From a virus, in the IMG/VR virus record IMGVR_UViG_3300033489_000513: a stretch of DNA of 30,418 nt; one strand, given 5' to 3'. The position numbers were made by a program, and so were the translations under genes. The notes beneath the pieces are model-generated. The model saw nothing but the letters and a program-made list of their open reading frames with translations, did not search any database and was not told the origin of the DNA. Shown in pieces: positions 2,044 through 27,422 of the stretch; position 1 is the first letter of the stretch, and every line of letters starts with the position of its first letter.

Positions 2044-2667
2044 ATGTTACAACAATTGTCAACCCCAACACCAAGAGATGTTGTGCGATATGTAGAAAAG
2101 GGGCCATATATCGCGGTTGTAGATGTAGAAACCGACAATAAAGAGGCTCGATTGGCGTATATTTTAGAGATTGCAATAGTTTGCCTCTCTCTCAAAACGG
2201 GAGAAATCGGAGTTGTTTATGATAGTATTGTTCGTTCGCGGGATTTTTTCCCGAAAGACAAAGATATATGGATACTTAAAAATAGTTCTCTCAAATTGTT
2301 TGATATCTATAAAGCCCCTACTTTAGAAAGTCAGAAAATCCAGATTCAGGCTATTCTCAATCAATATTATGTGACAGCGTTCAATGCGGCATATGATTTT
2401 ACGTGTTTAGAACGAGCGGGTTTTCGGATTCTCCACAAAGCTCCATGTATTATGCTCCAAGCAACGGATGTTTGTAAATTACATAGTAATTATGGATATA
2501 AGAGTTACAAGTGGCCCAAAGTAGAAGAAGCGTGGAATTTTCTATTTGGAAATCCATATAAAGAGGCTCACAGAGCATACGATGATGCTTATCATGAAGC
2601 CCAGATTTTATGGGAACTCATTCAAAGAAAAATATATGATCTATCATTTCTCACAAGAGAAACTTAA
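2044..2667 (+). CDS. DEDDh 3'-5' exonuclease (DnaQ-like)
   Basis: ExoI VVDVETD, ExoII AFNAAYDF, ExoIII HRAYDDA. Confidence 0.9.
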   Translation: MLQQLSTPTPRDVVRYVEKGPYIAVVDVETDNKEARLAYILEIAIVCLSLKTGEIGVVYDSIVRSRDFFPKDKDIWILKNSSLKLFDIYKAPTLESQKIQIQAILNQYYVTAFNAAYDFTCLERAGFRILHKAPCIMLQATDVCKLHSNYGYKSYKWPKVEEAWNFLFGNPYKEAHRAYDDAYHEAQILWELIQRKIYDLSFLTRET

Positions 2668-2781: not shown

Positions 2782-3816
2782 TTGCGCGATACGTTGAAGA
2801 TCGAATCCGAGGGGATAAAAATTCAAATTCCGCAACTTTTTGATCAGGACCCAAGGGAATTTCAAACTCCCCAAAAAAGTGGTAACAAAGCGAAGTTTGA
2901 CAATTCTAAATCAGATGGTAAAAATAATGATCTCGCCGAATATTATTGCTCGGAATGTGGTGGGCTGCTTTTAGAATATACTGGCGAATTGACGTGTTCT
3001 CAATGTGGACTCATATCAGGGCAAGTATATGGTCTTCCTCATACTCTTACTGGACGAAATCATCTTAACTACAAGGATTATTTCTGGGGGGAACCTCTTC
3101 AGAGCGCCAATCGTATGTTCTATTATCAGGAAGCAAAAACCCCCAAATTACGGTCTACTTTCTTCCGGATGGCAAAATTAAACCGCTTGCGGGATGACCA
3201 AGACTTGCGGGTCGGTAGTGCTTTCATATGCCTCCAAAAATTGGAAATTCAATTTCATTTTCCCTCTCTCTGGATTTATAATGCAATACATCTCACGAAA
3301 AAAGTACTCCAATCACAACCAAAACAGGAAGATATTCATTTTATTGCGGTTTGTGCGCTTTTCATCACGGCGCGTCAACATAATAACGCGATCACGAGCG
3401 TTACAATTCTCAAAGCGAGTGGAGTCCATGCCACCTTAAATCGAATGCACAAAGTTCTGGCGCAATATGCGCCCATTTGGGGTCATTTGAAGCATTGGGC
3501 TCCCACAGGTTTATTAAAAGAGAATCTCCAGAAAATAGCTGTTGCGTTTTTACCTGCTTTAAATAATCCCAAAGATATCCAAAAAGCATATGAAGAGTGT
3601 AAGGATTTATTTCTTCGCACAAGCAGGCTTCGAGGCAGCACTAATTCAATTATCGCGACAATTATTTATTTGCATTGGCAAAAATATTATTTGACCCAAA
3701 AACAAGTCGCCGAAGTTTGTGGTACAAATGATACGACTATCCGGGGAATTAAACGTCAAATACAATCACGATTAATTTTTCGTGGGGCTGGTATGTCTGA
3801 AACTTCCCGAGTCTGA
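2782..3816 (+). CDS. Transcription factor B (TFB/TFIIB)-like protein
   Basis: Zn ribbon CSECGG...GELTCSQCGLI, two cyclin-like helical regions, and a C-terminal HTH LTQKQVAEVCGTNDTTIR resembling TFB TQxEIAxxxGVTEVTIR. Confidence 0.8.
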   Translation: MRDTLKIESEGIKIQIPQLFDQDPREFQTPQKSGNKAKFDNSKSDGKNNDLAEYYCSECGGLLLEYTGELTCSQCGLISGQVYGLPHTLTGRNHLNYKDYFWGEPLQSANRMFYYQEAKTPKLRSTFFRMAKLNRLRDDQDLRVGSAFICLQKLEIQFHFPSLWIYNAIHLTKKVLQSQPKQEDIHFIAVCALFITARQHNNAITSVTILKASGVHATLNRMHKVLAQYAPIWGHLKHWAPTGLLKENLQKIAVAFLPALNNPKDIQKAYEECKDLFLRTSRLRGSTNSIIATIIYLHWQKYYLTQKQVAEVCGTNDTTIRGIKRQIQSRLIFRGAGMSETSRV

Positions 3817-4024
3817 AATTCATTCCCGAATTTTTACTGCTCTTTCTCTGACTACTAAAGAAAAAGGAATGGAACGCTTTGAAATTTGTAAATCTACACA
3901 TATCCCTTGGACCACACTCTACACTCATCTAACTGAATTGTGCGAAAAAGGAGATATAAGTTTCACTCATAGACGTATTCCCCGAAAAGGGCGACCAAAA
4001 ACAATGTGGTTTAGAGTGAGATAA
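3782..4024 (+). CDS. Winged-helix DNA-binding protein (regulator or possibly small terminase by position)
   Basis: EICKSTHIPWTTLYTHLTELCEKGDI helix-turn-helix with a KGRPK wing; the stop overlaps the terminase ATG. Confidence 0.7.
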   Translation: MGLVCLKLPESEIHSRIFTALSLTTKEKGMERFEICKSTHIPWTTLYTHLTELCEKGDISFTHRRIPRKGRPKTMWFRVR

Positions 4025-5880
4025 TGCCCAGAACTGTAACAGGAAGGAGATTGGATAAAGCGGTAAGAGCAGAAGAGGAAAAAGATTTTGATCCTTTTCC
4101 AGCTCCCACGGGATTTGATTCTCGTACATTAACGATTCGTTCACCCGAAGGAAAACGGATTCCCATATCTCATCCCGTTTTCAAAAACCCTCCTAACGAT
4201 GAAGAATGGGCTGCTTATTATTTACCTAACTCGATTTTGCCCACTAAAACTCAGGAATGGGATGAAAAAACTGGGCAGCCTCTGATCGATTCTCGCACGC
4301 GCCGGAAGGTAATGCGGGAAATTAAACCCCAGTTTTATAAAGTTCAACGAGATATCTCGGATTTTCTGGATGCTCATACGTGGGCAAAAGTGGAAATCTT
4401 TCGTGGGGCGGGGAAATCAATCGTTTCTCTCATCAAAATCCTGCGGAAAATCTGTGATAACCCTGAAGAACGCCTATTTTTTCAGTCAGAAGTGGAAGCA
4501 AAAACTGTCCAACGCATTCATTTGATTAAGATTCAATTACAAGTAAATCAAAGACTGATTAAGGATTATGGATATTTACCTTCTGACGAAAAAAGTGAAG
4601 AAGAAAAAGCAAATTTAATCTATGGAAAAGCAGGAAAGGGAAAATGGTCCCAACTCATTATTGATTTGAAACGCACATATATTGGTATTGAACCGACCAT
4701 TATGGGGTTTTCTTGGCAAAGTTCGGGAGGAGTGGGATACCATTTTACAGGGGGAATTCTCGATGATCCGTGGTCCGAGAAATCTCAAGGCGAGAAAAAT
4801 GCTTATGAAAAGTTCTGGAATTGGTGGGGTGAATTTGTCGGGAGTTTAGAACAAGTGACGTTTGTATGGGTTTTATGCACCAAGAAGGGCAAAAACGACA
4901 TCTACAAAGGAATGGATGACGAAAAACTTTTTGCCACTTACCGACAACCCCTTATCCTTGTAATGCCCAAAGAAGAGGATATTCAATATGTGGAGGATTC
5001 GGGGGGCGCGATTGTTGGGACTCGCATTCTTAACAAAGATCCCACTATTCAATATGTTTATGATGATTGTTTTGGGAAATATTCCATCGAGCGAGCTTGT
5101 CTCATTCGGAAAAGAGGCGGCAAAATCAAGTTTGAACGAGAATATAACCTGAAAATCATTCCTCCAGAAGGGAAATTCTTCCAATGGACAAATTTACGAT
5201 GGTGTAACCCCAGCGAAAATGCGTTGGATCCATATTCGCGGATTCCATATATCGATCTTGAGCGCCGGAGAATGCGATTAATCGGAATTTATGACCCGTC
5301 CTTTGGACAATCAGAACGAGCAGCTAATAATGCCCTTATAATAATGGGGGAATATCAAAATCGATATTATATCATTGATGCGTGGGTGGGGCATTGGAGC
5401 CGGCAAACACGTATAACTGCGTTTCAAGAATGCATTAAAAAATATCCAGGTCTCCCAATTTATATTGAAGAAGATTTTATGCAAGCAAAGATTGTGATAG
5501 ATCTATTAGGTTATTTTGCTAACCAGTTTACATTTCGGGGATATCGCGCACGTGGGCAAAATACTAAATATCGTGATTTTTTCGCGGGAGAAGGCGAAAA
5601 TGCAGGTAAAAAAGCGAAAATTGCGGATGCATTTGAACGACCATGGGACGGAAGCACATACTGTCTTCCAGATCTCCCTTATTTAGATGAGTTTGAAGAA
5701 GAAGTAAAAACCTTCCCTGATTGTGAACGTTTCGATATAATTGATGCCGTTGCGATGGGATTTCTCATTTTAATCAATCTCATAATTAGTTCAGAAGGAG
5801 GAGTTAGTTCTAAAAATGCAAGTCCTAACTTATTTATCCGCCCGCGCGTGATGGCAAAATTCCGCTTGGGAAATAATTAA
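4024..5880 (+). CDS. terL: Terminase large subunit
   Basis: Walker A FRGAGKS, Walker B GGILDDP, RNase H-like nuclease IGIYDPSFG, IYIEED, C-terminal FP...DIIDAVA; 618 aa. Confidence 0.88.
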   Translation: MPRTVTGRRLDKAVRAEEEKDFDPFPAPTGFDSRTLTIRSPEGKRIPISHPVFKNPPNDEEWAAYYLPNSILPTKTQEWDEKTGQPLIDSRTRRKVMREIKPQFYKVQRDISDFLDAHTWAKVEIFRGAGKSIVSLIKILRKICDNPEERLFFQSEVEAKTVQRIHLIKIQLQVNQRLIKDYGYLPSDEKSEEEKANLIYGKAGKGKWSQLIIDLKRTYIGIEPTIMGFSWQSSGGVGYHFTGGILDDPWSEKSQGEKNAYEKFWNWWGEFVGSLEQVTFVWVLCTKKGKNDIYKGMDDEKLFATYRQPLILVMPKEEDIQYVEDSGGAIVGTRILNKDPTIQYVYDDCFGKYSIERACLIRKRGGKIKFEREYNLKIIPPEGKFFQWTNLRWCNPSENALDPYSRIPYIDLERRRMRLIGIYDPSFGQSERAANNALIIMGEYQNRYYIIDAWVGHWSRQTRITAFQECIKKYPGLPIYIEEDFMQAKIVIDLLGYFANQFTFRGYRARGQNTKYRDFFAGEGENAGKKAKIADAFERPWDGSTYCLPDLPYLDEFEEEVKTFPDCERFDIIDAVAMGFLILINLIISSEGGVSSKNASPNLFIRPRVMAKFRLGNN

Positions 5881-5893
5881 TAGTTTCCTTTTA

Positions 5894-6088
5894 TTAACAC
5901 ATCATATCCGTTTCATTGCGTTTAAACAATAATTCTGGGAGATAGAAGGGATTTTTTTGGATTTGATGTCGATTTCTCTGCTTAACTCCTCTATTTAGAT
6001 GGCGCACTCTTCGTTTATAGGAACGTACTGTATATCCTGTGAAAGAATAACGGTTATCTTCTTCGGGGTGTCGTTTGGTATGAGTCAT
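5894..6088 (-). CDS. Small basic hypothetical protein, 64 aa
   Basis: ATG 6088 lies just downstream of the tRNA; the longer track start falls inside the tRNA. Confidence 0.5.
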   Translation of the reverse strand: MTHTKRHPEEDNRYSFTGYTVRSYKRRVRHLNRGVKQRNRHQIQKNPFYLPELLFKRNETDMMC

Positions 6089-6101
6089 AATTCTCACATT
6101 A

Positions 6102-6174
6102 TGGAGGCGGAGGGACTCGAACCCCCACCCAATTGGATGCAAACCAATCGCTCTGCCATTAGAGCTACGCCCCC
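6102..6174 (-). tRNA. tRNA-Ala(UGC), 73 nt, no intron, CCA not encoded
   Basis: GGGGGCG-TA-GCTC-TAATGGCA-GAGC-G-ATTGG-TTTGCAT-CCAAT-TGGGT-GGGGG-TTCGAGT-CCCTC-CGCCTCC-A. Full cloverleaf, anticodon TGC, G3:U70 alanine identity pair, A discriminator. Confidence 0.95.
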
Positions 6175-6539
6175 ACCAATATTGGTGTAGGATTATCTAA
6201 ATCTTTAGAAAAGGAAAATTTCCTCGCGAGGGTGCGGGGAAAGTGTCCAATTTGATCGTTCCAAATCGCATTACGTTTGAGTTTTTGTTTATGTTGAAAT
6301 CCACGTTCATCACGGCAGCCGCGGCATCGTCCCATACAAATTTGTTTGTGGGGACCAGGAGACCATTCCCAATCAATTTCAAATACTCTTCGTTTTTGTT
6401 GGGAATCAAAAATATAATTTATGAGAGGGAAATCAAACATCCGTTTTGCATTTCTTTCAACGTTATAAATACGTTTAGTGCGTGTCATAAGAAGCTCACA
6501 TTCTAATAATTCCTGAAAAATCTTTTTAAACTTTCCCAT
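6165..6539 (-). CDS. Basic hypothetical protein with CxxxCxxC motif
   Basis: ORF track, with probable ATG 6539; the stop codon lies inside the tRNA 5' end. Confidence 0.5.
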   Translation of the reverse strand: MGKFKKIFQELLECELLMTRTKRIYNVERNAKRMFDFPLINYIFDSQQKRRVFEIDWEWSPGPHKQICMGRCRGCRDERGFQHKQKLKRNAIWNDQIGHFPRTLARKFSFSKDLDNPTPILVGA

Positions 6540-6954
6540 CAAGCAATTCTTGCTTTTCAAGATTCAAACTTTTTATTTTTGCGTCAATTTCTATTAATCT
6601 TTCTTGTTTTCGTTTTTGCTTTCGTATTTCTCGATTCTTCTTTTCTCGTTTCAGAAGTAATTCAAGATTTAGTTCTGGTTTCAAACGGTTAGCATTTAGG
6701 AATATACCTTTGAAATTACAACATAAAGTTTGTTCATATAATTTTTGCGTTCTTTCATCAAATTTTAGATCTATATATTCGGGAGGGATTTCGAAGAGAT
6801 CACCAAAACCTCCTCCTCCCATCATCCAAACTGTGCCACATCCACAATAGAAAAGAGCTTTACCTTCACCTTCAACGAATCCATCTAAGTCGATGAGATT
6901 CCCACAAATATCACAATTTGCAATGGACATAATTTTCACTTTTCTATTTGACAA
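6526..6954 (-). CDS. Zn-finger plus coiled-coil protein
   Basis: CDICG...CGCG and a charged helical C-terminus. Confidence 0.65.
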   Translation of the reverse strand: MSNRKVKIMSIANCDICGNLIDLDGFVEGEGKALFYCGCGTVWMMGGGGFGDLFEIPPEYIDLKFDERTQKLYEQTLCCNFKGIFLNANRLKPELNLELLLKREKKNREIRKQKRKQERLIEIDAKIKSLNLEKQELLDGKV

Positions 6955-7390: not shown

Positions 7391-7966
7391 TCAAATCTTT
7401 AAACGATTCATTCTTTTGGGTTGTTTTCGATAATTTTCCTGATCTTCGATTCCTTCCATAAATTCCAGTGAAACTACTTTTCCAAAAAGTTGTTTGGGAT
7501 AGTTTTTAATTACAATACCTTCAATAGATGAGTTGGTTGCGAAAGCGGATTTGCGAGCAAGGTATTTGGGTAAATCCCTCTGAAATTCCTCTGGCGTCAT
7601 ACGAGGCCAGAGAAAGATGACGGGGATATGAGGTACCCCGAGAGGTTGTTTGATAAACGGATGTCCAAAGATTCTACCATTGATGGCATAATTCAAGAAA
7701 ACCTCGAAAGCAGGCAAGGCATCATAGAAGATGGAATGTCGCACTTTCAGGTTTTCATAAAAGGCATCTACTTTGAGAGATTTCATATCCCCCCACGAAA
7801 TCACTTCTTTTTTGTGGAGAAGTTGACCATCTATTTTCTCTTCAATCCATATTTCGCCAGTGAGTAAATCTTTCATTTCTTCTTCACTCATCATTGGGCG
7901 ATGCGTGTGAGGAATTTTGCCTATTGGAAGTCTCTTAATTTTGGCGTGATATTCGGTATCGTTCAT
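7391..7966 (-). CDS. Minimal ATP-dependent RNA-ligase-family nucleotidyltransferase (about 191 aa)
   Basis: Motif I EEKIDG, E..VRHSIFYDALP, motif IV IEGIVIK, motif V GKVV; ATG 7966 follows the upstream stop. Confidence 0.75.
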   Translation of the reverse strand: MNDTEYHAKIKRLPIGKIPHTHRPMMSEEEMKDLLTGEIWIEEKIDGQLLHKKEVISWGDMKSLKVDAFYENLKVRHSIFYDALPAFEVFLNYAINGRIFGHPFIKQPLGVPHIPVIFLWPRMTPEEFQRDLPKYLARKSAFATNSSIEGIVIKNYPKQLFGKVVSLEFMEGIEDQENYRKQPKRMNRLKI

Positions 7967-7967
7967 C

Positions 7968-8162
7968 TCATTTTTCCTCTTCAAAAGGAATTTCACCACA
8001 TTCTTTCTCATCTTCAGAGAAGACAAAGCGGGGTCGTCTAGCGCAGGACATCACATCTATGCCCATTCCATGATCTTTATATTTTTGCGTTAGTTCAAAA
8101 TGCTCCAAGAATCGCTTGAAGTCCTTCCACTTGAAGGTAATCTTGGTCTCGTCATCTTTCAA
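7968..8162 (-). CDS. Hypothetical protein, 64 aa
   Basis: ORF track; operon packing. Confidence 0.5.
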   Translation of the reverse strand: MKDDETKITFKWKDFKRFLEHFELTQKYKDHGMGIDVMSCARRPRFVFSEDEKECGEIPFEEEK

Positions 8163-8471: not shown

Positions 8472-8659
8472 TTTCGAGATTTATTTTGACAATTATTGCA
8501 AAGATAATCTTCCAGACTTACGAAATAAGGGGTTCCTTCCATTAGCATTGTGCGGATCCATCCCGAATGATGGAAGAATTGACCACACATCTTACAACGG
8601 GCGCGAAATCCTTTAGGAGGCGAATTTCCACCTTCGAGAGTTCCAATACGTTCATTCAT
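8468..8659 (-). CDS. Zn-finger microprotein, 63 aa
   Basis: CKMC...CNNC; ATGA overlap with pth2. Confidence 0.6.
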   Translation of the reverse strand: MNERIGTLEGGNSPPKGFRARCKMCGQFFHHSGWIRTMLMEGTPYFVSLEDYLCNNCQNKSRK

Positions 8660-9039
8660 AAAAGCTTTAGGTCTCCCGTTAATTCATCAAGTAAATAATT
8701 ATAAATGGGACCAATCGCAAAAGCGGTAGGGGTATCAGGCGCTATTTGGGTCAACCCCCAATCTACTTGAATACCTACAGGAAGACTTTTTTCATTTGCT
8801 TGTTTCACGATATTCCAAAAAGTTTCTTCCCTTGGTATTTTGAGAGCAATTTTTTTATAACCCGACTTCCACCATTCAGTTACCATATCGTGATCGAGGA
8901 CAACTGCTTCAATATACGCGAGAACTGAAGCATGAGCACCTTGAGCAACCATTTTCCCCTTGGACATTTCTAAGTCCGTTCTAATTCCAATGATTTGTTT
9001 TAATTGAATTTTTGGATTAGATTCTGGGTCAAGCCTCAT
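8656..9039 (-). CDS. pth2: Peptidyl-tRNA hydrolase 2 (archaeal/eukaryotic type)
   Basis: IRTDLEMSKGKMVAQGAHA, W...GYKKIALK, DWGLTQIAP.TPTAFAIGP, DELTGDLKLL. Confidence 0.95.
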   Translation of the reverse strand: MRLDPESNPKIQLKQIIGIRTDLEMSKGKMVAQGAHASVLAYIEAVVLDHDMVTEWWKSGYKKIALKIPREETFWNIVKQANEKSLPVGIQVDWGLTQIAPDTPTAFAIGPIYNYLLDELTGDLKLL

Positions 9040-9097: not shown

Positions 9098-9832
9098 ATG
9101 GTAATACATTTGGAAAATTGGACCAAAGAAACCCGAAAGCGAATGGGATATGGCAATGATCATACGAAAGATTCTCCAGGTCTTTCTCGCGAGTGGTTAT
9201 CTCGGTTCGCACATTATCGGGAGCATTTTCGAGAGTATAGTTTCACTCAGTTCAAAACCTTTTGTGAGGATTGCAGGGATGCTTTTCCGAATGTTTATTA
9301 TACGCTTGAACCAATAATTGCAATGTTGGGGGAGATTGCTAAATTCCTCCCCACAATTAAAATTTGTGAGTTAGGAGGCGCAGAAGGATTCCTTGCTTCG
9401 GATATCCTCCATCACACAGAGATTCCCATTAAATCCTGGAAAAATTGGGAAATCTCGGATCACGCACGAATGAATGATGTTTGTCACGATCTTCGCTATG
9501 TTTCATTACCTCTACTCGATTATGTCTGGCGCAAAGATCAATCTTTAGAATACTTTTTTAAGGATAATAATGTCTTTATTTCTACTCATGTTCTGGAACA
9601 TTTTACCCCAGATTATCTTGAAATCTTTTTTGAACATCTTCAAATTTCCCCTATCCAATTTTTGATTATTGAGATGCCACTGCCTCCCACAATTCACGAG
9701 ATTAAGTGGGAAGATGCTCACCTTTTACAAATCGGGTGGAAAGAAGTTTTGGAAATATTCACCCGATTTGGGTTTGAAGTATTTATGGAAACTCCAATGG
9801 TCAAATGTTTAAAAAGAGCAATATCAAAATAA
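9098..9832 (+). CDS. Class I SAM-dependent methyltransferase-like protein
   Basis: ICELGGAEGFLA (motif I), WEIS, STHVLEHF. Confidence 0.75.
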   Translation: MVIHLENWTKETRKRMGYGNDHTKDSPGLSREWLSRFAHYREHFREYSFTQFKTFCEDCRDAFPNVYYTLEPIIAMLGEIAKFLPTIKICELGGAEGFLASDILHHTEIPIKSWKNWEISDHARMNDVCHDLRYVSLPLLDYVWRKDQSLEYFFKDNNVFISTHVLEHFTPDYLEIFFEHLQISPIQFLIIEMPLPPTIHEIKWEDAHLLQIGWKEVLEIFTRFGFEVFMETPMVKCLKRAISK

Positions 9833-9843
9833 TCGGGGGTCAT

Positions 9844-10494
9844 TCATTCGCTCTTTTCTTTAATCCGATATTCATTATCCACACACTTAAAGCTTAACCG
9901 TCTCAAATGAAGATCTGGGTCTTGTCCTTCTCCGATGGAACGAACAACGATTCCTTCTCGCAAGACTGCGGGATTAATCTTGCTTTTCGCGTGGGCAAAA
10001 TGTTGGATATCTTCCACGTTTTCAGGTAAATGATAATCGGCATTTAAAATGGGAACAGTTTTCAATTGAAGGGCAATCGATAAACTAAATAAATCATAAT
10101 ACCCAAGATAGCAACCAAATTCGAGATCATAGGCATTAAATAAATAAAATTCATATGTGCCAGCGGGAAGCCTGTAGGGATTTCCACAGATCCCTTTTCC
10201 ATTTGGATGACACCCGATGATTTCGCCTTGGATGGCGATATCCCGCATAATTTCCCGCATATGTTGCTCGATGCCATATTTCTTTGCAACTGCCACAATG
10301 GGATTTTCCCCTTCGGGTTTTACTTCCAAGTTCCGAGAACAAAGACCAAAATTGCCTTCTTTAATATAATAAGTTGCGCTACAATTATGTACTAAAATTC
10401 CATTAGCAAAAAAACAATGATTTTCTGTTTCAATATCGTATTTTTTAGATTTTGTTTGAATCTTTTGGATTTTCTTAATATATATGGTTTGCAT
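9844..10494 (-). CDS. Split-intein C-half (37 aa) fused to the RNA ligase C-terminal extein (179 aa)
   Basis: KKYDIETENHCFFANGILVHN|C (intein blocks F/G; junction 10384/10383), then CSATYY..CSRN, IQGEIIG, FYLFNAY, EGIVVR, SFKCV. Confidence 0.92.
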   Translation of the reverse strand: MQTIYIKKIQKIQTKSKKYDIETENHCFFANGILVHNCSATYYIKEGNFGLCSRNLEVKPEGENPIVAVAKKYGIEQHMREIMRDIAIQGEIIGCHPNGKGICGNPYRLPAGTYEFYLFNAYDLEFGCYLGYYDLFSLSIALQLKTVPILNADYHLPENVEDIQHFAHAKSKINPAVLREGIVVRSIGEGQDPDLHLRRLSFKCVDNEYRIKEKSE

Positions 10495-11458
10495 CAATTT
10501 CCCTCAATTTTTGGATTATTAAACTTTTCAACTCTTTTTCATTTAATATTATCATTTCAGATTCCCAAATATAGATAACTAAAAATCCTTTTTGTTTAGC
10601 AATATCTGCTTTTTTCTTATCTTTATCCCAAATATTTTGAGCCGTTATCTTGGTACTAATATAATGTATTAAATCATCTGGATAATACATTGAAGGGTTG
10701 GCATGCCAATAATCACCTTGTATTTCTAAAATAATCTTAAATTCATTCAAGTAGAAATCGTACCAATAAGGATGAATAAAAAAAGGTTTTGTATAAACAA
10801 TTTTCGATCTATCTAAAATAGATTGAATACGTGTTTCTAATTTCGATGTAGAAGGGGTATTATTTCTGCGACTCTTTTCTCCATGAAGAGAAATGTTTAA
10901 CCAATGATTCTTTTCTTCATCTGTTAAATGGGACCAAATATATTTCATTTGTTTTTTCTTAAAATCTCCAAAATTTAAACCATATTTTTCAAGGTAATAT
11001 TTATCGGAATGAATTCTTTGGATAATTTCATCATATTGGAATATATTCTTTACGCCATATTTCTGTAAAACCGTTTGGTTTCGTTTATGATAAGGATCCG
11101 TATTTTTAGAGAGAGGATTTATTGCGCCATATTTTTTATAACAGGTTTTCTTAACCTTTTCCCGAGTTTTGAAAAGGTTCATACTTATTCTAATATCGCG
11201 AGAAGGAATTTTGAAATGTTTTATTAAGAATGCTATTGCGCGATAATCGAGCCCATATTTTCTCTTTAATTCAGGATAACTATATTGATTTGTAATATAT
11301 TTTTCGATAAAAATCTCTTTCTGTGCAATTTCGGGATAGTTGAAAAGAAGATGTTGATATCTTATTTCTTCATTAGAAAGAGTTTTATCTCTTTGTTTGC
11401 AAGCATAGATATGCCTCGAAGGATCAAATTCTTTTTTACAAAAAGGACAATATAACAT
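10475..11458 (-). CDS. Free-standing Vsr/DUF559-like (putative homing) endonuclease
   Basis: N-terminal CPFC..H..C finger, repeated KYG motifs, C-terminal SKLE..YDFYL..ILEIQGDYWH..DKKK..GFLVIYIWE; ATG 11458 (or 11482). Confidence 0.85.
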   Translation of the reverse strand: MLYCPFCKKEFDPSRHIYACKQRDKTLSNEEIRYQHLLFNYPEIAQKEIFIEKYITNQYSYPELKRKYGLDYRAIAFLIKHFKIPSRDIRISMNLFKTREKVKKTCYKKYGAINPLSKNTDPYHKRNQTVLQKYGVKNIFQYDEIIQRIHSDKYYLEKYGLNFGDFKKKQMKYIWSHLTDEEKNHWLNISLHGEKSRRNNTPSTSKLETRIQSILDRSKIVYTKPFFIHPYWYDFYLNEFKIILEIQGDYWHANPSMYYPDDLIHYISTKITAQNIWDKDKKKADIAKQKGFLVIYIWESEMIILNEKELKSLIIQKLREIDANHIY

Positions 11459-11500
11459 AAATATAAAAATGAAAAATACCATAAAAATACTTCGGAAAAG
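11459..11500 (-). promoter_or_regulatory. Putative leaderless archaeal promoter for the endonuclease
   Basis: TTCCGAAG-TA-TTTTTAT (BRE/TATA-like, 11497-11481), 22 nt upstream of ATG 11458. Confidence 0.5.
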
Positions 11501-11505
11501 GTGGA

Positions 11506-12360
11506 TTATTTTTCATTGTTCTCGCTAAGTAATAATACATCATCTTCTTGCAAATAATCTACTCTCCGCCAACATTTTTTAAGAGGAAGCCAGATTAAAT
11601 GATCACCCGTTATTTTTATCGATTTCCCGTTCGATAATTCAAGTTCAAACCATTGTGTGGATGGTTCATTTTCCCGAATTAAATAATTCCGAATTTTAGT
11701 CCAAATTTCTTTTGACTTAAATAAATCAAAACTTCGAATATTTCCTTTATATTGATTTTTATAGATTTCCCGAATAGTTTTAAAACCTAATTCGGTTTTG
11801 ATCAAGGTTTTTTCATCCAAACAACCATCTATCTTCTCGCTTGCATAGAACGTAAGTTCCTTAAATCGTTGGAGAAAAGAGGGAATATTCTCAATATCAA
11901 TTTCATCGGTTTTCGGGATGAAGGAAGGAAAATCCCCTAACGCATCCTGAGTCATTGGCAGGACTTTTTCATACTTGCGGATTCCTAAAATCTCTGTTAG
12001 ATTGAGCCCGACTGTAATTCGGAAGGATTTCTGAGAAAGTCTTAATTCTTTGTCAGCTAAACTCAACGGAAAGACGATTCCTGCGGAGACTTGTCCCCGC
12101 AAAGTTATGGCGCGGATGCGAAACCCTTGAAGACGGGGAACATAACACGATTTGCGGAGAAACTCAAACTCAGGTTTCTCGGGCAAAACAGAATCAGGTT
12201 CCACATAAATCACTAAATCCCCTTCTTTGTATCCTTCATCTTTCCGAACTACAATAGGCCATCCTTTATCTTTCAGCTTGAGCTTCAGGAGATTCTCCGC
12301 GGTGGGAATCGGCGTGAGACTCTCAATTTCCTGAATTGTTGCTAAAATAGATTCAACCAT
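11506..12360 (-). CDS. RNA ligase (DRB0094/DraRnl-like) N-terminal extein (179 aa) fused to the split-intein N-half (105 aa)
   Basis: LATIQEI..PIP.A, GDLVIYVEPDSVLP, RIRAITLRGQVSAGI, FPSFIPKTD, ASEKIDG|CLDEKTLI (intein block A; junction 11824/11823), block B IKITGDH. Confidence 0.92.
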   Translation of the reverse strand: MVESILATIQEIESLTPIPTAENLLKLKLKDKGWPIVVRKDEGYKEGDLVIYVEPDSVLPEKPEFEFLRKSCYVPRLQGFRIRAITLRGQVSAGIVFPLSLADKELRLSQKSFRITVGLNLTEILGIRKYEKVLPMTQDALGDFPSFIPKTDEIDIENIPSFLQRFKELTFYASEKIDGCLDEKTLIKTELGFKTIREIYKNQYKGNIRSFDLFKSKEIWTKIRNYLIRENEPSTQWFELELSNGKSIKITGDHLIWLPLKKCWRRVDYLQEDDVLLLSENNEK

Positions 12361-12763
12361 TTTTATTATCCTTCTTCATCACTTTCAAAAATTCACAATA
12401 TCCCTTTTCAACACAATATTTACAAAAACCACATTTTTGGACAGGCCAAGTATTTCTATTCCAAAGCGGGCGAATTGGATCCAATTCTTTTAAGAGATGC
12501 TTCCCACTACAAATATTACATTCAAAAAAGTCTTCTTTTACCTTTTCAGGGAATTTAACTGTTGTTATTGCATTTCTCCAATCTTGGTGAGCGAAACAAG
12601 GCTCATCTTCCCGCCAGACTTTTGTATCATATTCAATTTCCGATATCTCAATGGAATTATTTATGAGAAGTAAATGTTTCTCGGGAAAGACTTCAACGGA
12701 ATCTGCTGAAATAATTAAATCATAAGCAAATTCCCCATTATTTTGAGAGACTCGAAAGCGCAT
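12353..12763 (-). CDS. Hypothetical protein with Cys-rich C-terminus
   Basis: Probable ATG 12763; CNIC...CKYC. Confidence 0.6.
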   Translation of the reverse strand: MRFRVSQNNGEFAYDLIISADSVEVFPEKHLLLINNSIEISEIEYDTKVWREDEPCFAHQDWRNAITTVKFPEKVKEDFFECNICSGKHLLKELDPIRPLWNRNTWPVQKCGFCKYCVEKGYCEFLKVMKKDNKNG

Positions 12764-12773
12764 AAAATTCACT

Positions 12774-12968
12774 TCATAATAAAAAAGATTCACGCAGGCG
12801 TTCATCAAGCACCGCCGCTTTGTGGCATTTAATCTCATTCTCGATTCGCTCAATTTCGGCTTCTCGCAATCTAAAATCGAGAACTTTTTCATATACCTCC
12901 ATTTCTAAGGGAGTTTTCTTTCTGGTTTCTTCTTTCTTTGGTTCATTTTCATCGAGCATATTTTTCAT
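12774..12968 (-). CDS. Charged coiled-coil microprotein, 64 aa
   Basis: ORF track. Confidence 0.55.
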   Translation of the reverse strand: MKNMLDENEPKKEETRKKTPLEMEVYEKVLDFRLREAEIERIENEIKCHKAAVLDERLRESFLL

Positions 12969-15752: not shown

Positions 15753-16087
15753 ATTTCTCCCTCATAGGCGATATTATCGATTTTACTATGAATTTCCTCA
15801 AGCTGCTTGCGAAGATTTTCTTCTTCATATCTGAATTTTGTTAATTTTTCGAGCATTGAAGGTTTGAATTTCCGTAGGTTATCTTCATATCCATTTTCTA
15901 CTTTTCCCGTGAGTTCATCTTTGATTTTATAACAAACGTGGGGATATTCTCCAAGGGAATCAATATAACCTCCTACAATCTTTCCGTGAAATAAACGGCC
16001 ATAATCGTTGAGAACTACATCTTCTCCCATTTCAAACTTGAATTTAATCTCATTCAATACTTTCAACAATATTTCTTTTATGGACAT
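15719..16087 (-). CDS. Hypothetical protein (SH3-like beta region plus coiled coil)
   Basis: FKFEMGEDVV...GKIVG...YKIK...EDNLRK pattern. Confidence 0.6.
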   Translation of the reverse strand: MSIKEILLKVLNEIKFKFEMGEDVVLNDYGRLFHGKIVGGYIDSLGEYPHVCYKIKDELTGKVENGYEDNLRKFKPSMLEKLTKFRYEEENLRKQLEEIHSKIDNIAYEGEIWIRLKQTASK

Positions 16088-17703
16088 TTTCTCAATCCCT
16101 TCTTCATCGCTTTGATTTTTACAATTCGTTCATCATATAATTGCAAGACAAATTCTTGTATGAGTGGTTTTTTATCGGGCGCAGTTTGGAAATTACGGCA
16201 AGTCCAAAAACACCCATTTCCATCATTTTGTTTTTCAGTACGCCAATCGAGAGGACATTGGAGTTTCCCAAGACTCAGAGGCGCAACCCGTCCTTCTTTG
16301 AAGAAAGAATAGGGCCATCTATGTTCTGATGGTTCGGGCCACATTTTCGGATCCATCGAACACATTCCCCACGTACAGTAATTATATCTGCATCCAGGAA
16401 CATTACTATCTTCTGATTCGAGTTTCATTCCATTAGCAATAGCATCTCGAAACTGCTTTAAAACTTTAAGATAGTGAACTCGGGAAAAATTAAGATATAG
16501 GTGAAGCTTTTCCAAAGCATCGTGACAGAGCCTGCAATAAACCGTATATTCCACGGTTTCCATCTTTCCGCAATAAGAACAATGTTGATCATATGAAATC
16601 GCGGTTTTCTTCTTGCGATTATACTCCTCCCAATAAGCTTGTCTGCCTGACATACTCCCACCGCTAAAGCTCGTGGGTTCTGTTGTTAGCGGGATTCTCG
16701 CCAGAGCAACTATAGGGATATCAGTGTTCCCTTTGCAGGCATCTCTGTCTGTCTGCAATCGACCTACGTTTGGACGCTTTGCAATATTGAATCCTGCATT
16801 GCTGTCTGCGTGGTCAACGTGCCCGCAGGTCGGGCACTTGAACTCCTTTCTATTCCTAGTTCCTATTTGCCCGCACCGACTGCATTCCTTCGATGTATAT
16901 GCGGGATCAACATAGGCGACTTCCACGCCCCGCAGCTTGGCCTTATATTCTATCATTATTTGGAGCTGGTAGAACGACCAACTGTTCTTGGCATAGCGGA
17001 ATGACTTTACCTGTTTCGTATTCTGCCTAATATCCGTTAAATCTTCGAGCTTGATGCCTTTGCCAGATTCTTTGGCAACATCCACTATCTTTCTTGACAC
17101 GTTATGATTAATATTCTTGACTATACGCCTTTCCCGGTCTTTAATTTGTTTGACTTTGCCGTACTTACCTTTATGTTGAAGGTCTTTGCGTATATTTTTA
17201 TACTTTTGATGAATGTGGAGGGCGGTTTTTCCCAACTTCAAAACCTTACCTGTCTCGGGGTCAGAGACAACCGCTATGTGCCCCGTGGTATTCCTGTCCA
17301 CGCCTATCCAGCTTGATACTCTAACAAGATTAGGTTCAGGAATTGATATTGAGATATAGGCATACTCTTCGCCAACCTCTATTTGATTAACCTTTTCGAA
17401 AGTGTCAGGAAAGTCGTATCTCAAAGAGAGCGCGAGACATGGCGCAGAAATGATTCGAGTAGCGCGGTCAACCCTAATTCCTTGGTGAGGGATGGCGAGC
17501 TTGACGTGCTTGACTTGCTTGGCTCTTCCATCGTTGCTATACTTTCTAAGTATCTGGTTAGCGATCATCGACTTTAGACCGAGATGTTTCACATCTTTAG
17601 AGCTGCGACTACGTGTTAGGATAGCATAATGGGCTACTTTCTTAGCTTTTCTTAATTCCTCCGAGAAATCTTTCCCGTGCTTGATTTTGTAGGTTAGTAT
17701 CAT
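16078..17703 (-). CDS. tnpB: TnpB RNA-guided nuclease fused in frame to the C-terminal 189 aa of a Cys-rich viral protein (541 aa)
   Basis: RuvC-I IGVDRN, RuvC-II KLEDL, WSFYQLQIMIEYKA, Zn finger CSRCG..CPTCG, RuvC-III HADSNAGFNIA; no stop codon before the IS right end. Confidence 0.9.
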   Translation of the reverse strand: MILTYKIKHGKDFSEELRKAKKVAHYAILTRSRSSKDVKHLGLKSMIANQILRKYSNDGRAKQVKHVKLAIPHQGIRVDRATRIISAPCLALSLRYDFPDTFEKVNQIEVGEEYAYISISIPEPNLVRVSSWIGVDRNTTGHIAVVSDPETGKVLKLGKTALHIHQKYKNIRKDLQHKGKYGKVKQIKDRERRIVKNINHNVSRKIVDVAKESGKGIKLEDLTDIRQNTKQVKSFRYAKNSWSFYQLQIMIEYKAKLRGVEVAYVDPAYTSKECSRCGQIGTRNRKEFKCPTCGHVDHADSNAGFNIAKRPNVGRLQTDRDACKGNTDIPIVALARIPLTTEPTSFSGGSMSGRQAYWEEYNRKKKTAISYDQHCSYCGKMETVEYTVYCRLCHDALEKLHLYLNFSRVHYLKVLKQFRDAIANGMKLESEDSNVPGCRYNYCTWGMCSMDPKMWPEPSEHRWPYSFFKEGRVAPLSLGKLQCPLDWRTEKQNDGNGCFWTCRNFQTAPDKKPLIQEFVLQLYDERIVKIKAMKKGLRKCP

Positions 17704-17783
17704 TTCTTCTTCTGCTCCTCGATAATCTTTGGTAGACGGATTCATCCCACCACTAAAGTCGTAGGTTTTCTCCTACGTTCTCC
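16647..17783 (-). mobile_element. IS200/IS605-family, TnpB-only (IS1341-type) element, 1137 bp
   Basis: Related subterminal hairpins at 17746-17765 (left) and 16657-16677 (right); right end ...GGGAGTATGTCAG; TTAC immediately 5' of the left end; removal restores an intact ORF; no tnpA. Confidence 0.85.
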
Positions 17784-23364: not shown

Positions 23365-24125
23365 GTGTGTGTTCTTTGGCGAAAGTGGAATTAATTAATG
23401 AAGCTTGCCCGTTCTGCGGCAGTTTCCAAGTTGGGAATTTAACGGGAGAAGAAACATGTTATCATTGTGGATCTATTTTAGGACCACGGATGGAAGTTAG
23501 ATGGGAACAACGGGATATTGTTAATTGCTATGACAAACGAATCCGAGTCCCATCCAATTTTAAACAGCATTATCCTAAAGAAATTAATGATTATCAAAAT
23601 CTCTTTTTCTGGTCCACGTCAGCGACTTATTCAGGAATTTCCGTACGAACAAGATCGCGAGCCGATTATCTATTTGCGAAAGCAAGCAAGACCCCCGTAT
23701 TTGAGCGATGGCAAGCAGAAGTCACATCAAAAAGAGCGCATACTTGCCGTTTTTCAAGACTTTATTTCTTGGCAATTGAAATGGCATCCCGCGAATATAA
23801 AGAAACTCTCCCCGAAATTTGGCAAAAACAAGCTCGTATCTCGGTAGAAACACGGAGAAAAATTATGCCTGCCTTTCTTCCCCATATGAACAAACGAAGA
23901 TTAATTGGTGTCTGCAAGAATTACAGGAATTTAGCGATAAAGAAAATCTGGGAAGAATATCAATTGACGGGGATAGGATATGGTTTAGTTAGCAAATATG
24001 CGAGAATTTTCAATTCTACTTATTCTAAAGTTCACTATTATCTACACCTTTATCACCCAGAATTTAATGGTAACAGACCAAAACTTGGTGAAAAAAATGT
24101 TGTTAATCAAAAAAGGAACGTTTAG
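23361..24125 (+). CDS. TFIIB-type Zn-ribbon protein (divergent TFB-like)
   Basis: CPFCGS...TGEETCYHCGSIL; helical remainder. Confidence 0.55.
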   Translation: MSVCSLAKVELINEACPFCGSFQVGNLTGEETCYHCGSILGPRMEVRWEQRDIVNCYDKRIRVPSNFKQHYPKEINDYQNLFFWSTSATYSGISVRTRSRADYLFAKASKTPVFERWQAEVTSKRAHTCRFSRLYFLAIEMASREYKETLPEIWQKQARISVETRRKIMPAFLPHMNKRRLIGVCKNYRNLAIKKIWEEYQLTGIGYGLVSKYARIFNSTYSKVHYYLHLYHPEFNGNRPKLGEKNVVNQKRNV

Positions 24126-24525
24126 CGCAGCTCATTTCCTGCCGAATTACAATGGAAAGTGTAGTAATATTCACGGACATACGTGGATATATGAAGTTCG
24201 ATTGAAAGGACATTTTCATTATACTGACCCTCAAAATTATGATGGAATTTGGTTAGATTTTGAAGGTGTTAAAAATATAATGGAACAATATGATCATTTA
24301 AATCTGAATGATTTCTTCACGAATCCCACTTGCGAAATAATTGCTTTAACATTAGGTAGAGAAATAGTGGAACTATTCCCCCAAGTTAAGGATATTACAC
24401 TCGCGCTTTTGGAATCTAATAAAGCGGGAGTGATAGTGGATTGGAAGGATATTCAATCTTTTTCCCAAGATTTATATGTAGAAAAGAAAAAAGAGAATGA
24501 AATTGAACAGAAAAAGGAAGGTTAA
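24097..24525 (+). CDS. queD: 6-carboxy-5,6,7,8-tetrahydropterin synthase
   Basis: FSAAHFL, CSNIHGHTW, LDF, DHLNLND, NPTCE; GGTGA upstream of ATG 24097. Confidence 0.92.
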   Translation: MLLIKKGTFSAAHFLPNYNGKCSNIHGHTWIYEVRLKGHFHYTDPQNYDGIWLDFEGVKNIMEQYDHLNLNDFFTNPTCEIIALTLGREIVELFPQVKDITLALLESNKAGVIVDWKDIQSFSQDLYVEKKKENEIEQKKEG

Positions 24526-26874: not shown

Positions 26875-27422
26875 CCTACTTTGACCACGAACATCGCCAG
26901 GATCGCAAGACTCCCTGTTCCGTTGGAACTATCCGTCTTGCGGACGGTAACCCGTAATAACGTATCTGGATTGGGGAGGACGAGTTGCGCCGGGTGTTCT
27001 CTGACATATGGAGCCTTCACCACGGTTATGTTATCGATAAATGTCGCCGTGGATGGCCCCACGATAGTCTCTGTGTTGCCATTCGTGGAGAATCCCGCTT
27101 TCAGGGACGTGTTGATTATCCCACCCGTGGGAAGTGCACTACATGCCACTGCCACGCGCAGGACATACGTACCAGCGTGGCGAATGATGAACATCGCGCC
27201 CACGGCTGCGACCGTGTTCGAGAGCGGGCACGCCATCGCGGGTAATCCATCAGCATCGAGAGCCCACGCGAATCCAGCGGCCGGGGCAGGTGCGGGCACT
27301 AATCCGCTGTCTGGAAAGATGACAGCAATTCGTTCTTCGGCTGTATAGAGACGAGCTACGTGTAGATCATCAGGTTCCACGACAAATCCAGGCGGATTAG
27401 GTCGAATCAAATCTTCGCTCAC
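26871..27422 (-). CDS. Putative virion/tail-associated beta-rich protein (about 183 aa)
   Basis: GTGA overlap with the tail gene; A/G/T/V-rich. Confidence 0.55.
   Translation of the reverse strand: MSEDLIRPNPPGFVVEPDDLHVARLYTAEERIAVIFPDSGLVPAPAPAAGFAWALDADGLPAMACPLSNTVAAVGAMFIIRHAGTYVLRVAVACSALPTGGIINTSLKAGFSTNGNTETIVGPSTATFIDNITVVKAPYVREHPAQLVLPNPDTLLRVTVRKTDSSNGTGSLAILAMFVVKVG

Follow-up and report, generated by a model that had tools for sequence, protein, structure and literature searches.

How a ligase could still be made from a gene that is broken at its catalytic motif is the question raised by a locus at positions 9844–12360 of the viral contig IMGVR_UViG_3300033489_000513, which comes from a soil metagenome and measures 145 kb; positions are those of the stretch of 30,418 nucleotides analysed here (the window). 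The two parts of the ligase gene, which is of the Rnl5 nick-sealing type, are encoded there in separate open reading frames (ORFs), each joined to what resembles one half of an intein, and a third ORF, for an endonuclease, lies between them. We consider it probable that the locus holds a selfish cassette, consisting of a class 1 intein halved by a free-standing EDxHD endonuclease gene, in the ligase gene of an archaeal-virus-like genome, directly after the sequence EKIDG. A sequence-only reading of the same DNA had proposed such a fractured gene, with a class 1 split intein at KxDG/C (slashes mark intein junctions throughout) and a free-standing Vsr-like endonuclease, and the analyses described here bear this proposal out.

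Organization of the interrupted ligase gene

Three consecutive ORFs constitute the locus, all on the minus strand. Gene 1 (12360–11506) encodes 284 amino acid residues, of which residues 1–179 are the N-terminal part of the ligase (N-extein, 11824..12360), composed of an OB-fold module and the start of the nucleotidyltransferase domain, and the following 105 residues are a putative N-terminal intein half (IntN, 11509..11823). The N-extein ends with motif I, EKIDG, in which Lys176 is the predicted adenylylated lysine, the junction reads ...EKIDG/CLDEKT..., and the ORF closes with ENNEK and a TAA stop codon at 11508–11506. The ligase part is matched by PF21189 (PHA02142 OB fold, 91.4 bits) and by positions 1–170 of TIGR02306 (DRB0094 RNA ligase), and residues 180–256 are matched by TIGR01445 (intein_Nterm) with 35.7 bits, above the cut-off of 24.5. 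Gene 3 (10497/10494–9844, 217 or 216 residues depending on the start) begins with a putative C-terminal intein half of 37 residues (IntC, 10384..10494), ending ...GILVHN, and continues, from CSATY, into the 179-residue C-terminal part of the ligase (C-extein, 9844..10383, stop codon included). Residues 20–39 are matched by TIGR01443 (intein_Cterm, 28.3 bits; cut-off 15.6) and the ligase part by PF09414 (RNA_ligase, 52.5 bits). The gene coordinates, the lengths of the four parts and the position of the stop given by the sequence-only reading agree with these ORFs and profile matches, and the scan with intein profiles that it had suggested as a check came out in its favour.

The region between the halves is occupied by gene 2 (11482–10475, with a likely start at 11458), the longest ORF of which has 335 residues. 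Genes 1 and 3 use the same frame, which differs from that of gene 2, and 28 stop codons interrupt the host frame between the two ligase halves. The ATG of IntC lies 20 nucleotides inside the 3' end of the endonuclease gene, with a GAGGG 6 nucleotides before it; an overlap of 7–17 nucleotides between the endonuclease stop and the IntC start is also found in three related metagenomic loci (L001, L004 and L049). Promoter, terminator and repeat scans gave no signal above chance.

The whole cassette (10384..11823, 1,440 bp), comprising the IntN coding part, a spacer, the endonuclease gene and the IntC coding part, is compositionally foreign, with a low guanine plus cytosine (GC) content of about 27% overall: 0.30 in IntN, 0.27 in the endonuclease gene and 0.22 in IntC, against 0.43 in the N-extein, 0.40 in the C-extein and 0.385 in the window. 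The N-extein aligns to residues 7–174 of the Naegleria gruberi RNA ligase NgrRnl (PDB 5cot; E 6e-18), ending at its KLDG, and the C-extein to residues 176–336 (E 2e-10). Since the two halves abut on NgrRnl, the insert lies exactly between Gly179 and the next residue, with no loss and no duplication. The locus is therefore a fractured gene, with a break at a conserved site, IntN and IntC on the inner ends of the two halves and an out-of-frame endonuclease ORF between them.

The split intein

The residues expected of a class 1 intein (HINT) are all present in the predicted halves: Cys1, the TxxH of block B, the aspartate of block F, the terminal His-Asn and a cysteine at position +1. Cys1 (Cys180 of gene 1), Thr251 and His254 (block B, T251-x-x-H254) are invariant in seven split N-halves sharing 39–46% identity, and Tyr19 and Asp20 (block F), together with His36 and Asn37 (block G), are invariant across five C-halves. 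The +1 residue, Cys38 in gene 3, is a cysteine or a serine in 12 of 12 IntC-bearing halves; most of the intein-free homologues seen have a serine, threonine or cysteine in this position, and one (P0125) has a valine.

The charge distribution is only partly that described by the sequence-only reading, which had noted an acidic tail in IntN. The tail is indeed acidic (the last 14 residues have a net charge of −4), but IntN as a whole is not (net +2); IntC carries six lysines and a net charge of +3. Modelling of residues 172–284 of gene 1 with residues 1–46 of gene 3 gave an interface score (ipSAE) of 0.83, where the best of three controls reached 0.00; the three runs share at least 90% of contacts, and the predicted local distance difference test (pLDDT) value of the partner is at least 74. 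The mark used for this score is reached by 58 of 80 solved complexes and by 2 of 110 mismatched pairs; since split inteins with solved structures exist, passing it may show likeness to these and is no proof of binding. With this reservation, the model supports a pairing of IntN and IntC. The contacts of lowest error are between FELEL of IntN (238–242) and IKKIQKI of IntC (6–12), a modelled pairing that resembles the strands of alternating charge described for the halves of gp41-1 (Dassa et al., 2009; PMC2677866). In a search of IntN against PDB sequences no intein was matched at E below 0.1.

The endonuclease gene

The product of gene 2 is, as judged from its sequence, a full-length homing endonuclease of the EDxHD/Vsr fold with its catalytic residues intact. 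It is matched by the Vsr profile TIGR00632 (E 1.3e-6) and by phrog_3339, labelled 'homing endonuclease' (E 7.8e-13). Among proteins of solved structure, I-Bth0305I (PDB 3r3p) and Escherichia coli Vsr (PDB 1cw0) are its best relatives. Asp234, Glu245, Asp249, His252 and Asp280 (numbering of the 327-residue form) are invariant in four cassette endonucleases sharing 27–31% identity and align to the catalytic segment of Vsr. An assignment as the Vsr mismatch-repair enzyme itself was considered and rejected: with 28.7 bits, gene 2 is far under the TIGR00632 cut-off of 97.85, so that the fold family is common to both and the repair identity is not (for DUF559, the score is 16.7 bits against a cut-off of 20.6).

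Three parts can be distinguished in the protein: an N-terminal CxxC...H...C zinc finger, repeated KYG modules (DUF7487) and the C-terminal Vsr-fold nuclease. The N-terminal region reaches 27.5 bits with DUF7487 (cut-off 27) and matches HTH_28 weakly (E 0.16). Since a CxxC zinc finger opens all four cassette endonucleases, translation probably starts from the second ATG (11458), which gives a protein of 327 residues. The family is very large: 7,109 cluster representatives match at E<=1e-3, of which 202 reach E<=1e-30, and most of the best-scoring relatives match over nearly the full length.

The EDxHD family of homing endonucleases has I-Bth0305I as its prototype (Taylor et al., 2011; PMC3239194). 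Gene 2 has in common with I-Bth0305I the C-terminal Vsr-fold nuclease, including its conserved Glu, Asp, His and Asp, and its N-terminal region may likewise bind DNA; the similarity to 3r3p is weak in a single-sequence search (E 0.014). It differs from I-Bth0305I, which is intron-encoded, in being free-standing between intein halves and in having the N-terminal zinc finger and the DUF7487 repeats.

Other alleles of the split ligase

The search for intein-free and contiguous-intein alleles, also suggested by the sequence-only reading, returned both kinds and many further split ones. Intein-free alleles include P0125, which is 54% identical to the C-half, and P0003, which is 57% identical to the N-extein. 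Two sequences, P0121 and P0122, carry a contiguous LAGLIDADG intein at the same site (EKIDG/C...HN/CSGT), and a third, P0123, has one at a second site 25 residues upstream (KTDEVR/C...HN/CQN). At least 15 split alleles of Rnl5 ligases are present in metagenomes, at these two sites. The KxDG site is split in the N-halves P0002, P0004–P0007 and P0009 and in the C-halves P0126, P0127, P0133, P0134, P0138, P0150 and P0152, one of which (P0133) is labelled 'RNA ligase family protein [Patescibacteria group bacterium]' at NCBI; the upstream site is split in L001/L002, L004 and L049, which have the three-gene layout with a related endonuclease, and in P0083 and P0109. Three genes arranged as in the window, with an IntC start that precedes the endonuclease stop, are found in L001, L002, L004, L049 and L086.

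In a tree of IntN sequences, the split inteins of both sites form one clade (support 98/99), apart from the three LAGLIDADG inteins, and the KxDG and upstream sites are not resolved from each other. The nearest relative of the IntN of the window is that of P0004, with 48% identity. The LAGLIDADG inteins share with the split ones the two insertion points (EKIDG/C and KTDExR/C) and the +1 cysteine; they differ from them in being single ORFs with an in-frame LAGLIDADG domain, and their splicing domains, with 23–33% identity to the split ones, constitute the separate clade.

Three of these alleles have peculiarities of their own. In L003, a split intein at the KxDG site with a serine at +1, the halves (5956–6846 and 12068–12682) are separated by 5.2 kb of DNA that encodes about ten unrelated ORFs but no endonuclease, and it looks like a domesticated, dispersed split gene. 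P0002 (394 residues) has an HNH domain fused ahead of the ligase N-extein and IntN, and the N-extein of P0009 (296 residues) ends with KVD before Cys1, lacking the glycine of KxDG.

The Rnl5 genes of cultured phages (275 records) are all intein-free, and no match was obtained in 50,697 phage records, either with the locus (blastn) or with the terminase and IntN (tblastn). An apparent IntN in 45 records of Aeromonas and Stenotrophomonas T4-like phages, produced by a tblastn search with gene 1 (88% of the query), was rejected as a spurious extension, the annotated gene being a 361-residue intein-free ligase.

A cassette family in several ligases

Related cassettes were also identified in other genes. 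Among 80 IMG/VR loci chosen by endonuclease similarity alone, so that the proportions are not a census, the flanking ORFs of about 25 carry IntN and IntC sequences matching hidden Markov models built from the Rnl5 split inteins, with IntN E-values between 1e-22 and 1e-43 for the ligase-hosted loci and a weaker match (4e-12) for a ribonucleotide reductase locus, L149. The break is almost always at motif I, with the junctions KxDG/C, KxDGxN/C, KxHG/C and, once, K/TDG. By Pfam assignment, the hosts are PF09414 RNA ligases (L087, L088, L136, L139 and L148), Rnl1-type PF09511 ligases (L102, L112 and L134), an NAD-dependent DNA ligase (L090) and an ATP-dependent DNA ligase (L110), to which L117 is a close relative by its junction sequence only; further hosts are KxDG proteins without Pfam assignment. 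In L084 (337–2148, with a C-half at 3108–4322), the intein stands directly after the lysine (...AQEK/C...HN/TDGQ...), and the host is a 500-residue protein with a cytidylyltransferase-like domain upstream and a C-half without a Pfam name.

All these loci fall inside the split clade of a 36-sequence IntN tree (99/98), intermixed with the Rnl5 ones, which suggests that one split-intein family belongs to the two Rnl5 sites and to motif I of several other polynucleotide-ligase families. Most internal branches of this tree are without support, so that it does not show in what order, or how often, the cassettes changed hosts. We give about even chances to a wider proposal, in which a single undescribed lineage of split intein and EDxHD endonuclease would have colonised motif I (KxDG) of at least five ligase families (Rnl5, Rnl1-like, other PF09414, ATP-dependent DNA and NAD-dependent DNA ligases) in bacterial and archaeal viruses, moving between non-orthologous genes by way of the shared motif and, in Rnl5 ligases, also between the two sites, which are 25 residues from each other.

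The predicted spliced ligase

Joining of the two exteins gives a protein of 358 residues and 40.7 kDa, from precursors of 33.1 kDa (N-extein–IntN) and 24.7 kDa (IntC–C-extein). It is composed of an N-terminal OB module and a nucleotidyltransferase domain, with no C-terminal OB domain, and is collinear with residues 7–336 of 5cot; its identification as an Rnl5/DRB0094-type RNA ligase is supported by these features. The C-extein provides motif III (QGE233), motif IV (E322-G) and motif V (SFK345), and Lys176 and Asp178 of motif I, Glu233, Glu322 and Lys345 are in columns that are 99–100% conserved in 151 intein-free homologues. The domain order, the collinearity and the motif I lysine, motif III and IV glutamates and motif V lysine are as in the Rnl5 ligases DraRnl and NgrRnl (PMC1807946; PMC7261155). 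Unlike these, the ligase described here is encoded in two pieces, has a serine and an aspartate in the positions of Arg4 and Arg149, and contains a 5-residue insertion (GCHPNGKG), which is common to its nearest relative, P0003. The sequence-only reading, which had described a joined ligase with a normal motif I and with motifs III, IV and V, was right about the residues of these motifs; the ligase as a whole is not fully normal, as two near-universal arginines of the γ-phosphate site are replaced, a point that this reading had not noticed.

Evaluation of alternative explanations

Several observations weigh against a functional cassette in a functional ligase. With a threshold of 85% conservation in the 151 intein-free homologues, 88 columns are conserved, and the spliced ligase departs from the consensus at 13 of them. 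Five departures (Ser4 for Arg, Glu22 for Asp, Ala84 for Thr, Ala93 for Gln and Asp155 for Arg) are private to this copy in a comparison with ten other sequences, which included four other split alleles, two excised contiguous-intein alleles, P0003, P0125 and P0145. Ser4 and Asp155 stand in the positions of NgrRnl Arg4 and Arg149, where 93% and 97% of the homologues, respectively, have an arginine; in NgrRnl both arginines hold the γ-phosphate of ATP, and the R149A mutation reduces nick sealing to 15% (PMC7261155). With both γ-phosphate arginines replaced, the ligase activity of this copy is uncertain. Taken apart, the halves score 84.8 and 19.8 bits with TIGR02306, each under the cut-off of 151.15. 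A hairpin upstream of the endonuclease gene was not seen, the fold of 11560–11440 (−13.7 kcal/mol) being no more stable than that of shuffled sequences (z 0.25). The read evidence consists of contigs from one sample, and splicing, ligase activity and endonuclease activity are functions that we infer from the sequence.

The departures could be explained by decay of the locus, in which the cassette would be real but the ligase or the splicing would be dead in this copy and the halves would be turning into pseudogenes. The loss, in this copy only, of the two γ-phosphate arginines and of three other near-universal residues of the N-extein, which holds 8 of the 13 departures, points in this direction. 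Nevertheless, none of the three ORFs is disrupted, the splicing residues and the core ligase residues (motif I lysine, motif III and IV glutamates, motif V lysine) are all kept, the nearest intein-free relatives are equally divergent overall (12 departures in P0003 and 16 in P0125, against 13), and the R149A mutation in NgrRnl causes only a partial loss, so we regard decay as unlikely. A function of the halves without covalent joining, with the intein halves as a mere dimerisation clamp, has a conceivable parallel in a split SbcD-like gene that has a Vsr-like ORF and no intein (Dassa et al., 2009; PMC2677866). Here, however, the break is three residues past the catalytic lysine and would leave an unspliced HINT domain of 142 residues inside the active site, and Cys1, Asn37 and the +1 nucleophile are kept in divergent alleles, for which only splicing would select; we hold this explanation to be highly improbable. 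The window being a metagenome contig with contig support from a single sample, it has also to be considered that errors of assembly or sequencing could have made a contiguous, intein-containing ligase gene look split. In the Logan assembly of the probable source run, one contig with 32x depth covers 9500–12900 with 0 differences to the window, and in a second run of the same sample low-depth contigs cover both junctions (11333–11538 and 10033–10507), again with 0 differences. No joined or intein-free allele was seen in the Logan contigs, which drop rare variants and are thus silent on its absence. Given the 28 stops in the host frame and the different frame of gene 2, no single error explains the layout, as the earlier reading had also argued; moreover, the three-gene layout recurs in independent metagenomes. 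An artefact is thus excluded for practical purposes.

Returning to the favoured reading of a selfish cassette in the ligase gene, the three genes would be transcribed together and translated, among others, into the 33.1-kDa and 24.7-kDa precursors. The intein halves would pair by the β-strands of alternating charge (FELEL/IKKIQKI) and fold into a HINT domain, and splicing would proceed by an acyl shift at Cys1, trans-thioesterification to the +1 cysteine and cyclisation of Asn37, releasing the 358-residue, 40.7-kDa ligase with motif I restored. The endonuclease would cut intein-free alleles of co-infecting relatives, the repair of which would copy the cassette in (homing).

Genomic context

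The window encodes a large terminase (phrog_38, E 2e-22) and a structural protein. A peptidyl-tRNA hydrolase of the archaeal type, Pth2 (8656–9039, minus strand), scores 105 bits with TIGR00283, above the curated cut-off of 82, and the one cellular relative found for it is from a Micrarchaeota metagenome-assembled genome (46% identity). These matches make an archaeal-type context plausible, in agreement with the sequence-only reading, and support no specific host. A DEDDh/RNase T-like exonuclease (2044–2667, plus strand), a tRNA-Ala(TGC) gene (6101–6175, minus strand) and Pth2 are within 10 kb of the ligase, which hints that they could constitute with it a module for RNA/tRNA repair or maintenance.

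Four other regions of the window deserve mention. A 211-residue ORF at 7391–8026 (minus strand) has a sub-threshold match to PF09414 (E 0.005, residues 91–175), which may have arisen by chance or may mark a second ligase-like gene that has diverged strongly; the ORF is not really similar to the C-extein (E 0.15) and has no match among solved structures. A 555-residue TnpB-like ORF lies at 16078–17745 (minus strand), with a Cas12f1-like TNB domain at residues 258–321. At 23998–24525 (plus strand) there is a gene of the 6-pyruvoyl-tetrahydropterin synthase/QueD-like family (PF01242, E 2e-19), members of which, in viruses, are often part of 7-deazaguanine base-modification pathways. The region 27000–29000, inside a 993-residue ORF (27419–30400, minus strand) whose sole PHROG match is a short one to a virion structural protein, has a GC content of 0.48–0.54, against 0.385 for the window; no rRNA was detected in it by Rfam.

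Relation to known fractured genes and significance

The fractured-gene layout has been known since 2009, when it was described in gp41, IMPDH, DnaE, NrdA, NrdJ, DNA ligase and terminase genes and in that of one unknown protein, with RNA ligase absent from the hosts; the loci named are gp41-1 to gp41-8, NrdJ-1, NrdA-2, IMPDH-1, DnaE, DNA ligase and terminase (Dassa, London, Stoddard, Schueler-Furman and Pietrokovski, 2009; PMC2677866). The locus described here is like those in having an enzyme gene split at a conserved site into ORFs with IntN and IntC, a Vsr-like endonuclease gene on the same strand between the halves, overlapping frames and a viral context. It is unlike them in its host, an Rnl5/DRB0094 RNA ligase, in its context, which is archaeal-virus-like where theirs is phage, and in having no hairpin upstream of the endonuclease ORF, a feature that is frequent in those loci and not strictly defining (Dassa et al., 2009; PMC2677866). 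A 2025 survey of actinophage inteins reported RtcB-type and tRNA-splicing ligases, members of another enzyme superfamily. In the full-text literature within reach, which excludes most subscription journals, we found no intein in an Rnl5 ligase or at KxDG and no split intein of an archaeal virus.

The layout is thus a known one, and the Rnl5 ligase appears to be an unreported host. The sequence-only reading, which had presented the locus as a new instance, stands in so far as no paper on an intein in the Rnl5 family was found; a rare occurrence it is not, given the many split alleles and the cassette family in other ligases. This ligase-wide cassette family is possibly the new point, and the pattern, in which one split-intein family is found on motif I of several ligase families and on two sites of a single ligase, next to unrelated LAGLIDADG inteins at these two sites, is a tractable data set on how inteins and endonucleases change host genes and target sites. 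Halves of this kind are now filed as 'RNA ligase family protein' or 'hypothetical protein', which bears on annotation. A compact split intein of 105 and 37 residues, with a natural cysteine +1 junction and a sequence far from that of solved inteins, is also a candidate for the protein-ligation toolkit. For the biology of inteins and of the viruses that carry them, the locus adds an Rnl5 nick-sealing RNA ligase to the intein hosts and appears to extend the fractured-gene layout to a virus of archaeal type.

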